A DNA stretch of 61,706 nt, from positions 1 through 61,706 of IMG/VR virus record IMGVR_UViG_3300025141_013347; one strand, written 5' to 3'. Position 1 is the first letter of the stretch. Every line of letters starts with the position of its first letter. Below, in pieces: positions 11,715 through 13,210 of this stretch. A program made the position numbers and the translations under genes. Below the pieces are notes generated by a model. The model was not told the DNA's origin and searched no databases. It saw only the letters and a list, made by a program, of their open reading frames with translations. The DNA is from a virus (taxonomy: Duplodnaviria > Caudoviricetes).

Positions 11715-11746
11715 GCCGCAGGAAGGCCTGGGCTTACAGAGGTCTT
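11715..11746 (+). ncRNA. CCGCAGG pseudoknot-like motif, copy 1
   Basis: GCC-GCAGG-AAGGCCT-GGGCTTACAG-AGGTCTT; stem AAGGCCT/AGGTCTT. Confidence 0.6.
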
Positions 11747-11772
11747 TTAATTCATAAAGAAGGTTTAATTTA

Positions 11773-12207
11773 ATGAGCAAAAATAAAGTACAAAATGATA
11801 ATACCGTGACACTGCACTATCGCGGTACTTTTGATGACGGCACAGAGTTTGACAGCTCCTATGACCGTGAGCCTCTAGAGGCGAAGATAGGTGCAGGACA
11901 ACTTATTCCCGGCTTTGAGAGTGCAGTAGTCGGAATGGACGTTGGGGAGAAAAAGACAGTTTGTGTCTCGCCGGAAGAGGGATATGGACCTTCACTAGCT
12001 GAAGCCATCCAGGTAGTCCCTAAGACACAATTTCCTGACACATTTAATTTTGCTGTCGGCGCAATGGTGTCGGGCCAAAATGAGGATGGCCATCCACTGG
12101 TTGCCAGAATAGTTGAAGAAGATGTACAAACTGTGACCCTAGACTTCAACCACCCCATGGCTGGAAAAAATCTAAATTTTGATATTGAACTACTTACTGT
12201 TCAATAA
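11773..12207 (+). CDS. FKBP-type peptidyl-prolyl isomerase (SlyD/SlpA-like)
   Basis: V.LHYRG...DGTEFDSS, LIPGFE, DFNHPMAGK.L.F. Confidence 0.92.
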   Translation: MSKNKVQNDNTVTLHYRGTFDDGTEFDSSYDREPLEAKIGAGQLIPGFESAVVGMDVGEKKTVCVSPEEGYGPSLAEAIQVVPKTQFPDTFNFAVGAMVSGQNEDGHPLVARIVEEDVQTVTLDFNHPMAGKNLNFDIELLTVQ

Positions 12208-12213
12208 CTAAAA

Positions 12214-12256
12214 AACCGCAGGGAGGCACGGGGTTCATGTTGAAGATAGGTGTCTC
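12214..12256 (+). ncRNA. CCGCAGG pseudoknot-like motif, copy 2
   Basis: AACC-GCAGG-GAGGCAC-GGGGTT...-GTGTCTC. Confidence 0.6.
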
Positions 12257-12289
12257 AACCCATAACACACACACACAGAGGAGAAAAAA

Positions 12290-12493
12290 ATGGGTGATAA
12301 AAATAAAAGCGGATATGAACTACGTAGTGATTTGCTAGGAATGGCAATTGGAATTGTTGACCAAAGGGTTAATCGTTTGTTCGAGAATGAGCATATGAAG
12401 CCTGAAGGCCAGCGAAATGCAGTCCAGCCTTTCACAACTGAGGATGTAATCGCGGAGGCTGAAAAGCTTTATAATTTTGTTCAGAAAAAATAA
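12290..12493 (+). CDS. conserved phage hypothetical protein (YELR..LL.MA ... AEKLY.FV)
   Basis: GAGGAG SD preceded by an (AC)6 run. Confidence 0.75.
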   Translation: MGDKNKSGYELRSDLLGMAIGIVDQRVNRLFENEHMKPEGQRNAVQPFTTEDVIAEAEKLYNFVQKK

Positions 12494-12539
12494 TTAATTC
12501 TTTGTTATACAAGGAAGAGTAGCAGGATATTATCATATC

Positions 12540-12571
12540 TCCGCAGGGAGGCCCGGGGTTACAGGGGCCTC
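12540..12571 (+). ncRNA. CCGCAGG pseudoknot-like motif, copy 3
   Basis: TCC-GCAGG-GAGGCCC-GGGGTTACAG-GGGCCTC followed by a T-run. Confidence 0.6.
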
Positions 12572-12595
12572 ATTTTTTTATAAAAAGAGGAAAAA

Positions 12596-12850
12596 ATGAG
12601 AAGTTTATTTGCTGTCATAATGACAGTTTTTTTTATGTTTGTTGTACCCGGGTGTGGTGATGATGCTGAAACTGTTCCAGCGTCAAATACTGCTGATGTC
12701 ACTGAGCCGAGTGATACCCAGGATAATGATACATTATCACCTGAGGTAACTGACGATGCGTCACCCGCTGGTGATGATTCGGCCAGCACTGATGAAGACG
12801 CATCCAACACTGATGAAGACGCATCCAACACTGATGAAGGAGGAGAATAA
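12596..12850 (+). CDS. acidic lipoprotein
   Basis: Signal peptide with VPGC lipobox; acidic tail. Confidence 0.7.
   Translation: MRSLFAVIMTVFFMFVVPGCGDDAETVPASNTADVTEPSDTQDNDTLSPEVTDDASPAGDDSASTDEDASNTDEDASNTDEGGE
12787..12839 (+). repeat. 21-bp tandem repeat (2.5 copies) encoding TDEDASN
   Basis: CACTGATGAAGACGCATCCAA x2.5. Confidence 0.9.
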
Positions 12851-13141
12851 ATGAAGTATTTTACTAATAAGCGATTTTTGTTGTCTTTAGCCGTTGCCGG
12901 CGTAATCGGCGCCGGATACTTTGGGTTTAACTATTTTAGTAACACCACTGTGACAACACAGGCTGTTGTAGATGGTACAAAGTCCACCGAAGTTGATGAG
13001 ACGACTGTACCGGCTATAACTACAGAGAAGCCCATCACGACCCAACCGGCGGTCGTTAATGAAGTTCCGGTAGTTACTACCCCTCAAGTTAATGTTGAAG
13101 AAGACAAGATTGACACAGAGAAGAACGCCCCAACCAAATAA
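12851..13141 (+). CDS. membrane-anchored Thr/Val/Pro-rich protein
   Basis: N-terminal TM helix, low-complexity tail. Confidence 0.7.
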   Translation: MKYFTNKRFLLSLAVAGVIGAGYFGFNYFSNTTVTTQAVVDGTKSTEVDETTVPAITTEKPITTQPAVVNEVPVVTTPQVNVEEDKIDTEKNAPTK

Positions 13142-13146
13142 TGGTT

Positions 13147-13179
13147 GTCCGCAGGGAGGCCCGGGGTTACAGGGGCCTC
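13147..13179 (+). ncRNA. CCGCAGG pseudoknot-like motif, copy 4
   Basis: Identical to copy 3 over about 38 nt. Confidence 0.6.
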
Positions 13180-13210
13180 ATTTTTAACTTTAAATGAGAA
13201 TATAAGACGT

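Follow-up and report, generated by a model that had tools for sequence, protein, structure and literature searches.

The viral DNA analyzed here is a stretch of 61,706 nucleotides (nt), positions 1 to 61,706 of the 35%-complete IMG/VR record IMGVR_UViG_3300025141_013347 (Duplodnaviria; Caudoviricetes), and is referred to below as the window. Its plus strand carries four intergenic copies of a small structured RNA element, CCGCAGG followed by a hairpin of 7 base pairs (bp), and no further copies were found. Sequence comparison firmly supports a structure for this element as an H-type RNA pseudoknot of ~35 nt, lying on the sense strand of polycistronic phage mRNA. It represents a real and widespread pseudoknot family of uncultured marine T4-like phages, without a description in Rfam 15 or in the papers searched. 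From its context we tentatively propose, at somewhat less than even chances, that the pseudoknot acts as a very stable but leaky terminator-type or 3'-end-protecting element between cistrons and that it moves with gene cassettes.

In this fold, stem 1 pairs N-C-C with G-G-N' in the hairpin loop, and loop 1 reads (G/A)CAGG. Stem 2 has 7 bp, formed by R-A-G-G-C-N-N and its complement. One purine connects the stems, loop 3 reads UU..AYAG, and the tail is an A followed by a G-poor, U-rich stretch. The four copies punctuate a run of co-oriented accessory genes in the order 75-aa (amino acid) open reading frame (ORF), copy 1, FKBP, copy 2, 67-aa ORF, copy 3, 84-aa and 96-aa ORFs, copy 4 and Csp:

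11479-13411, plus strand: co-oriented accessory-gene run punctuated by the four copies (ORF calls, Pfam)
11479-11706, plus strand: 75-aa ORF
11715-11746, plus strand: pseudoknot copy 1, covariance model score 48.3 bits; stem 1 5' strand GCC (11715-17), loop 1 GCAGG (11718-22), stem 2 5' arm AAGGCCT (11723-29), loop 2 G (11730), stem 1 3' strand GGC (11731-33), loop 3 TTACAG (11734-39), stem 2 3' arm AGGTCTT (11740-46)
11773-12207, plus strand: FKBP isomerase (Pfam FKBP_C)
12215-12256, plus strand: pseudoknot copy 2, covariance model score 41.6 bits; stem 2 GAGGCAC/GTGTCTC
12290-12493, plus strand: 67-aa ORF
12540-12571, plus strand: pseudoknot copy 3, covariance model score 59.9 bits; in order T, CC, GCAGG, GAGGCCC, G, GGG, TTACAG, GGGCCTC
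12596-12850, plus strand: 84-aa lipoprotein-like ORF
12851-13141, plus strand: 96-aa ORF
13148-13179, plus strand: pseudoknot copy 4, covariance model score 58.1 bits; core identical to copy 3
13211-13411, plus strand: Csp (Pfam CSD)
13425-13455, plus strand: ordinary intrinsic-terminator-like hairpin without a pseudoknot, GGGCAT...ATGTGCCC then TATTTTTTT, closing the run after csp

A preliminary description of this DNA, made from its letters alone, had placed four CCGCAGG motifs with 7-bp stems in these gaps, and all four are present on the plus strand where it put them. The three stem sequences it listed are also as written, with GAGGCCC/GGGCCTC occurring twice, in copies 3 and 4. It had put the stem ends 24-33 nt ahead of start codons, and we measured 26, 33, 24 and 31 nt to the ATGs at 11773 (FKBP), 12290 (67-aa ORF), 12596 (lipoprotein) and 13211 (Csp). 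On the upstream side, copy 1 starts 9 nt past the TAA of the 75-aa ORF, copy 3 lies 47 nt past the stop of the 67-aa ORF, and the CC of copy 4 begins 7 nt past the TAA of the 96-aa ORF. Copy 3 is followed by A and T7 (12572-79), so that the element with its tail spans 12540-12579, and copy 4 by A and T5 (13180-85); a simple terminator scan flagged both as terminator-like. The leader-loop pairs GCC/GGC, AACC/GGTT and TCC/GGG are all present, those of copy 2 in a register shifted by one base (AACC, 12214-17, with GGTT, 12232-35). The loop of copy 2 is 20 nt long (GGGGTTCATGTTGAAGATAG, 12230-49) and includes a 10-nt insertion within loop 3. Insertions at the same point were seen in loci L039, L072, L085, L018 and L175.

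Several controls separate these copies from chance. CCGCAGG occurs 10 times on the two strands of the window against 3.70 expected (standard deviation 1.82), a count reached in 0 of 100 shuffles, and the remaining six matches have no hairpin. The 12-mer CCGCAGGRAGGC, with at most one mismatch, has four forward matches and none in reverse, and a reversed control matched on neither strand. A covariance model run on the window with filters off scored the four copies at 41.6-59.9 bits and the next best match at 12.2 bits (E 0.18). Taken by itself, thermodynamics gives the motif no support: folding each window copy separately gave unremarkable z values (-1.17, 0.06, -2.77 and -0.65 for copies 1-4), and the minimum-energy fold of copy 1 is a non-conserved alternative. 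The case for the motif comes from comparison with relatives and not from the window alone.

The preliminary description did not recognize the family, and neither the window nor the region around the motif yielded a matching family in Rfam 15. At gathering scores the whole window gave six tRNAs and nothing else, sixteen related loci gave tRNAs only, and relaxing the threshold to E<=10 for positions 11600-13300 added five chance matches, none centred on the motif (best E 0.12). Two variants, compared by blastn with 50,697 records of cultured phages, gave only chance fragments (E 0.5-7), with sensitivity limited by the short queries. A pattern scan of 185,579 prokaryote species genomes matched three contigs of metagenome-assembled genomes and gave no clue to a host. 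Paper searches by motif and by topic found no description of the element, supplements and the figures of the papers on PeSL elements being outside their reach.

Relatives were collected by a pattern scan of viral contigs, which gave at least 120 loci and 133 instances among the matches listed, or 118 distinct canonical copies once duplicates were removed. One of the 133 matches, L017, lies on a GC-rich contig with a plain short hairpin and was dropped as unrelated or due to chance. The alignment used for pair statistics (A1, 115 distinct 41-mers) leaves out duplicates, L017 and three loop-insertion copies (L039, L072 and window copy 2). Among the matches listed, the 118 copies share the layout n-CC-GCAGG-RAGGCNN-G-GGn'-UUAYAG-N'N'GCCUY-A. 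The two A residues and the G of AYAG are invariant in all 118 copies although the search pattern left them free. A second pattern, with the 5' side left free, gave 101 distinct hairpins, all with a CC(G/A)CAGG leader.

The pseudoknot itself is borne out by covariation between the leader and the loop, as had been anticipated, with the invariant core now read as (G/A)CAGG. The base 5' of CC (N, n in the layout) pairs with the fourth loop base (N') in 115 of the 118 distinct copies, as A-U in 49, C-G in 38, U-G in 13, U-A in 7, G-C in 6 and G-U in 2. In the three exceptions (A with G), as in window copy 2, pairing is possible in the one-base-shifted register. Overall, 99.7% of the 1150 pair cells in the 115 aligned copies are paired. 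Shuffles came to 86.9%, none of 500 matching the observed value, and sliding the partner strand gave 59.1% at most. Compensatory changes affect three to four stem 2 pairs and the N:N' pair, for which 5-6 pair types are seen. One stem 2 pair is G-C in 68 and G-U in 47 of the 115 copies, and the G-U pairs occur on the gene-sense strand only, pointing to an RNA transcribed in the same direction as the genes.

Model-based searches of these loci revealed a divergent second type with CC-ACAGG and an A at the junction. The junction purines covary (G/G 47, A/A 13, mixed 1). In some divergent copies stem 2 pair 2 has changed from A-U to G-C, in L036:5422 an otherwise invariant C-G pair of stem 1 has become G-C, and others have hairpin-sized insertions between UU and AYAG. 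Loci chosen by gp32 similarity rather than by the motif gave 65 matches, all on the gene strand, with 99.8% of pairs formed and N:N' paired in 59 of 59. Homologues lacking leader-loop covariation, which the preliminary description had named as grounds for seeing only a terminator hairpin, were thus not what the relatives look like.

More than 120 viral contigs carry the element. Among five large motif contigs, four encode a T4-type Gp23 capsid protein and all five encode a gp32-type single-stranded DNA-binding protein (SSB) of one clade; the best cultured-phage match of UvsX from these contigs is 31% identical. Whole large contigs contain only 1-3 copies each, so the element is no general punctuation signal. 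The gene upstream belongs to a single protein cluster in 74 of 128 instances, and this cluster is gp32 (PF08804 in 3 of 3 representatives). Downstream, 110 unique proteins fall into 35 clusters of unrelated function, including UvsX (30), FKBP (14), a 176-aa protein (11), a 67-aa protein (9), a zinc-ribbon protein (7) and an Hc1-like protein (4). Maps of 120 sources give as the usual order a gene for a ~280-aa protein, gp32, the pseudoknot, 0-3 small accessory genes, often with a copy of their own, and uvsX. In many loci a single copy stands between gp32 and uvsX without any accessory gene.

The interval between gp32 and uvsX looks like a hotspot for accessory genes, and larger ones found there (L046, L074, L102 and others) encode ParB_N-domain, HATPase_c_3 and D12 adenine methyltransferase proteins. 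The window lacks gp32 and uvsX and has the same accessory genes with their copies, like L125 and L127; elsewhere, too, the pseudoknot borders homologues of these genes. In G002, a complete 293-kb contig, a plain terminator follows gp32 and two copies flank a homologue of the 67-aa protein gene (p67) 170 kb away.

The evidence that bears most directly on function comes from the slot behind gp32. When loci were chosen for gp32 similarity and nothing else, the pseudoknot directly followed gp32 in 46 of 70 distinct loci, and variants of it did so in two more (48). Of the 24 loci counted without the pseudoknot itself, 19 have at this position a GC-rich hairpin that is followed by a T-rich tail and often has a UUCG or GAAA loop, again with a Shine-Dalgarno (SD) sequence and ATG within ~12-30 nt. 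On a gp32 tree (77 rows, FastTree) at least 11 changes between the two states are needed, six of them forced by well-supported branches; shuffled states need 22.5 changes, and 0 of 500 shuffles were as low. Pseudoknots and ordinary hairpins of the terminator type, which are very stable, have thus replaced each other repeatedly, and because plain hairpins of this type fill the same slot in sister phages, we tentatively read the pseudoknot as a terminator or stabilizer.

The 5' end of gp32 has a structure of its own. A sigma-70-like promoter is followed at once by a second conserved, covarying hairpin, 35-70 nt upstream of the start codon, in L007, L012, L013, L049 and ~40 other loci (alignment A4). 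It consists of AG, an 8-bp stem, an 8-nt loop (~RAGAUUKG) and ACU, has compensatory changes in 8 of 10 predicted pairs, and found no Rfam match in the 16 loci scanned. Since it directly follows the promoter, it probably lies at the 5' end of the mRNA, where it could be a gp32 autoregulatory site or a 5' stabilizer. Together with the 3' pseudoknot, it gives the gp32 message conserved structure near each end.

Placement relative to the flanking genes is narrow on both sides. Of 117 distinct cases, 101 have CC 6-15 nt past the stop codon, 67 of them at 7-10 nt. This puts the first paired base immediately outside the mRNA segment that a terminating ribosome keeps unpaired. The stop codons before these 117 copies are TAA (69), TAG (43) and TGA (5). 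From the stem end to the next start there are 16-33 nt in 103 of 120 cases, which leaves no room for a promoter between the element and the next gene. All copies have a GC-rich hairpin, and the T-run behind it is offset from the stem by an A and ~2 nt. The base next to the stem is A in 132 of 154 copies, G is found in only 0-4 of 154 at each position from +2 to +7, and T occupies +4 to +7 in 106, 114, 96 and 80 of 154. Within 10 nt of the stem, at least four consecutive T are found in 68 of 154 copies and at least three in 97.

Several loci depart from this plan or add to it. In the uvsX leaders of L015, L092, L113, L048, L114 and L030, TCC-TTAT/TTTT-GGAG right after stem 2 can form a small hairpin, which could stack on the pseudoknot and would make the uvsX SD inaccessible. 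Tracts of CA repeats (ACACACACACA) separate the pseudoknot from the SD of the 67-aa gene or its homologues in the window (12257-12289, between copy 2 and the ATG at 12290) and in L028, L029, L079, L087, L045, L098 and L112. In L076 the pseudoknot starts 3 nt past a T6-tailed canonical terminator hairpin (~3470-3563), and L061 has a degenerate and a full copy 8 nt apart (~586-680). In the window, a sigma-70-like match at 12506-12541 (TATACA, 16 nt, TATTAT; 9/12) takes up the 47-nt gap ahead of copy 3, with a predicted start on the first base of that pseudoknot, which may be chance. A promoter directly upstream was rejected as a general feature, as other copies with long gaps have no consistent promoter and such matches are common (21 versus 12.6 expected).

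Under the reading that we tentatively prefer, the pseudoknot would do the job of the sister phages' terminator hairpin in a compact form locked by tertiary structure. As a leaky terminator-type hairpin it would stop some of the transcripts, and it would also block 3'-to-5' decay, setting and stabilizing the 3' boundary of the upstream message, be it gp32 or an accessory gene. The remaining transcription would run on into uvsX or the next accessory gene, neither of which has its own promoter. The architecture, in which stem 1 is short and the conserved loop 1 crosses the far end of the long stem 2, fits a barrier to enzymes arriving from the 3' side, and the near-constant sequence may provide a portable boundary for the insertion or exchange of accessory genes. 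In T4 itself, the gene 32 transcript is described as the most stable of the phage's mRNAs (PMC3014915). RNA-library contigs cover parts of the stretch only (FKBP is uncovered in X9); one of them spans 11442-11744 and stops at the 3' arm of copy 1, which agrees with a 3'-end role as a weak hint and proves nothing, as contigs cannot show RNA ends or levels. The preliminary description had offered ligand binding, protein binding and nuclease blocking as options. The context favours nuclease-blocking or terminator-type activity and argues against a metabolite switch.

A number of observations count against this preferred reading. As a terminator the element would be weak, with a run of four or more T in only 68 of the 154 copies and an A and ~2 nt in front of that run, and transcription must pass through the element because no promoter would fit ahead of uvsX or the accessory genes. 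A plain hairpin would suffice for termination or for blocking exonucleases, which leaves the near-invariant loop 1, AYAG and four stem 2 pairs unexplained. This near-invariance holds across phages whose gp32 proteins are only 40-60% identical, and the constancy of the loops also fits recognition by a specific factor. The terminator plus pseudoknot of L076 and the double copy of L061 look redundant for a terminator or stabilizer.

A bolder formulation, possible although on balance unlikely, is that the pseudoknot would be a previously unrecognized portable mRNA tag of 35 nt, probably braced by a triple helix, which serves either as a bacterial equivalent of exonuclease-resistant RNAs, directed here against 3'-to-5' enzymes, or as the site of a phage RNA-binding protein such as gp32 that defines a small post-transcriptional regulon, and which in both cases moves between phage genomes with accessory-gene cassettes. 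Another possibility is a protein-binding operator. The pseudoknot would nucleate a phage protein, gp32 being the obvious candidate, which would then cover the G-poor linker and the next ribosome-binding site (RBS). By analogy with T4, translation of uvsX and other tagged genes would be tied to free gp32, with the gene 32 logic moved 3' of gene 32. An unstructured, G-depleted stretch does run from the pseudoknot to the SD and AUG, the layout that part of PMC3014915 describes for the T4 gene 32 operator. The element adjoins gp32 in 74 of 128 cases, all five large motif contigs encode this gp32 clade, near-invariant loops fit sequence-specific recognition, 1-3 copies per genome would suit a small regulon, and the uvsX SD can pair with bases just past stem 2 in the six loci given above. 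We consider this operator less probable than a terminator or stabilizer, though still a live rival. Close relatives repeatedly use plain GC hairpins without any conserved loop base, the downstream genes (UvsX, FKBP, Csp, lipoproteins, Hc1, methyltransferase) are functionally unrelated, the linker is only 16-33 nt, and the element sits 3' of gene 32 instead of in its leader, which has a different conserved hairpin.

The association with mobile genes could also mean that the element is mainly a boundary for recombination, its constant 35 nt being kept as short homology for gene swaps and any RNA role being secondary. The maps show copies flanking variable ORFs in plastic regions, among them the accessory genes of the gp32-uvsX interval, and p67, FKBP, Csp and p75 appear with flanking copies in other contexts (window, L125, L127, G002). 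Of 61 pairs of copies from one locus, 33 agree in the variable stem dinucleotide and 5 are identical, against 31% and 0.9% of pairs between loci. PeSLs behave in this way in T4-type phages, as part of PMC4122927 reports. Homology alone, however, predicts neither compensatory changes, nor strand-specific G-U pairs, nor a covarying pseudoknot pair, and leaves the fixed spacing to stop codon and SD unexplained. Many loci have one copy after gp32 and no accessory gene, and the promoter part is absent, unlike in PeSLs. We regard a primarily recombinational role as decidedly improbable.

A small-molecule riboswitch, or a small self-cleaving ribozyme that processes polycistronic RNA, is more improbable still. 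In size and architecture (short stem 1, conserved loops, 7-bp stem 2) the element is reminiscent of the smallest pseudoknot aptamers, such as guanidine-III and preQ1-I; it has invariant unpaired bases, and stem 2 could double as a terminator stem. No riboswitch or ribozyme in Rfam matched even at E<=10, however, no conserved alternative fold was seen, the SD lies outside the element, the 35 downstream clusters have no common metabolic theme, and plain hairpins are interchangeable with the pseudoknot. Finally, an element acting on the ribosome at the upstream stop codon, by read-through, frameshifting or re-initiation, is barely credible and was rejected: the first paired base does lie ~6-9 nt past the stop in most copies, which is the spacing of recoding stimulators, but X XXY YYZ heptamers precede the stop in only 2 of 108 cases, in-frame extensions are mostly <=30 codons with 20 of 94 running in frame into the next ORF, the frames of the next gene relative to the upstream one are near uniform (38/28/28), the plain hairpins of sister loci are similarly placed (3-25 nt past the stop), and stem 1, which a ribosome would meet first, has only 3 bp.

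Elsewhere the window encodes tRNAs and a number of host-like proteins:

99-1817, 14149-14226 and 38176-38249: six tRNA genes (Val, Leu, Thr, Arg, Met, Lys)
3922-5373: PEPCK, host-like
6390-7412: DnaJ, host-like
13521-14117: PP-loop (TilS-like) enzyme, host-like
14241-15284: IMPDH/GMP-reductase family protein, host-like
36883-38010: AAA_5 ATPase, host-like
45852-47174: DUF2201 metallopeptidase/VWA protein, host-like
55934-57184: ATP-dependent DNA ligase, host-like

The 3' end of the lipoprotein-like ORF (12770-12840) contains a direct repeat encoding (S/N)TDEDAS units, and contigs from other samples have a 3-nt insertion behind 12803 within this repeat region.

These results add a well-supported structured RNA family from viruses without a cultured relative, with covariation that is unusually clean for so small an element. 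They place a pseudoknot on the 3' side of gene 32 in T4-like phages, a new arrangement compared with the 5' one, and reopen the question of how expression of SSB, recombinase and accessory genes is balanced in these phages. If this natural, sequence-defined module of 35 nt does block RNA decay or tune termination, it would be useful for RNA engineering. As accessory genes carry the element along, it may also serve as a marker for tracing gene-cassette exchange among marine phages.

Among known RNAs, the guanidine-III/ykkC-III, preQ1-I and SAM-II/V aptamers are comparable H-type structures of ~35-40 nt with conserved loop bases. The present element differs from them in having no Rfam match, no coherent gene set and no conserved expression-platform switch. 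The STAXI motif (RF01728) consists of tandem pseudoknot repeats in Enterobacterales near SSB and anti-restriction genes, according to part of PMC2864571. The proximity of a pseudoknot to SSB genes is shared; the elements described here are single units between genes of marine T4-like phages and have no Rfam match. PeSLs, as set out in part of PMC4122927, combine a stem-loop with a sigma-70-type -35/-10 promoter and an SD and flank variable ORFs of T4-type phages. Like them, the pseudoknot is a repeated intergenic stem-loop motif that borders small variable genes where the genome is plastic, and it may promote their shuffling, as is proposed there (PMC4122927). Unlike them, it is a conserved pseudoknot and not a loosely defined hairpin, and it has no promoter in the 16-33 nt to the next start. 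Membership in PeSL was rejected, since this distance (103 of 120 cases) is too short for a promoter and a leader.

The T4/T2 gene 32 mRNA pseudoknot operator, as described in part of PMC3014915, is likewise H-type, linked to gene 32 and followed by an unstructured stretch to the RBS. The present element is located downstream of gene 32 and upstream of other genes, occurs also away from gene 32 (window, G002), and differs from the T2 pseudoknot in sequence and in stem and loop sizes. It follows the gp32 stop, and the gp32 leader carries a different hairpin, so it does not have the position of the T4 gene 32 translational operator. With the intrinsic (Rho-independent) terminator or intercistronic stabilizer hairpins of T4-type phages, among them very stable tetraloop hairpins, the element shares a GC-rich stem just past the stop codon, an A and a U-rich tail, and the same genomic slot. 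It differs from these hairpins in that the next gene follows 16-33 nt on without a promoter, so that the pseudoknot cannot be a full stop, and in its weaker, offset U-run. Its loop 1 and the 3' end of its loop 3 are sequence-invariant, and a covarying helix of 3 bp ties its hairpin loop to the 5' flank.

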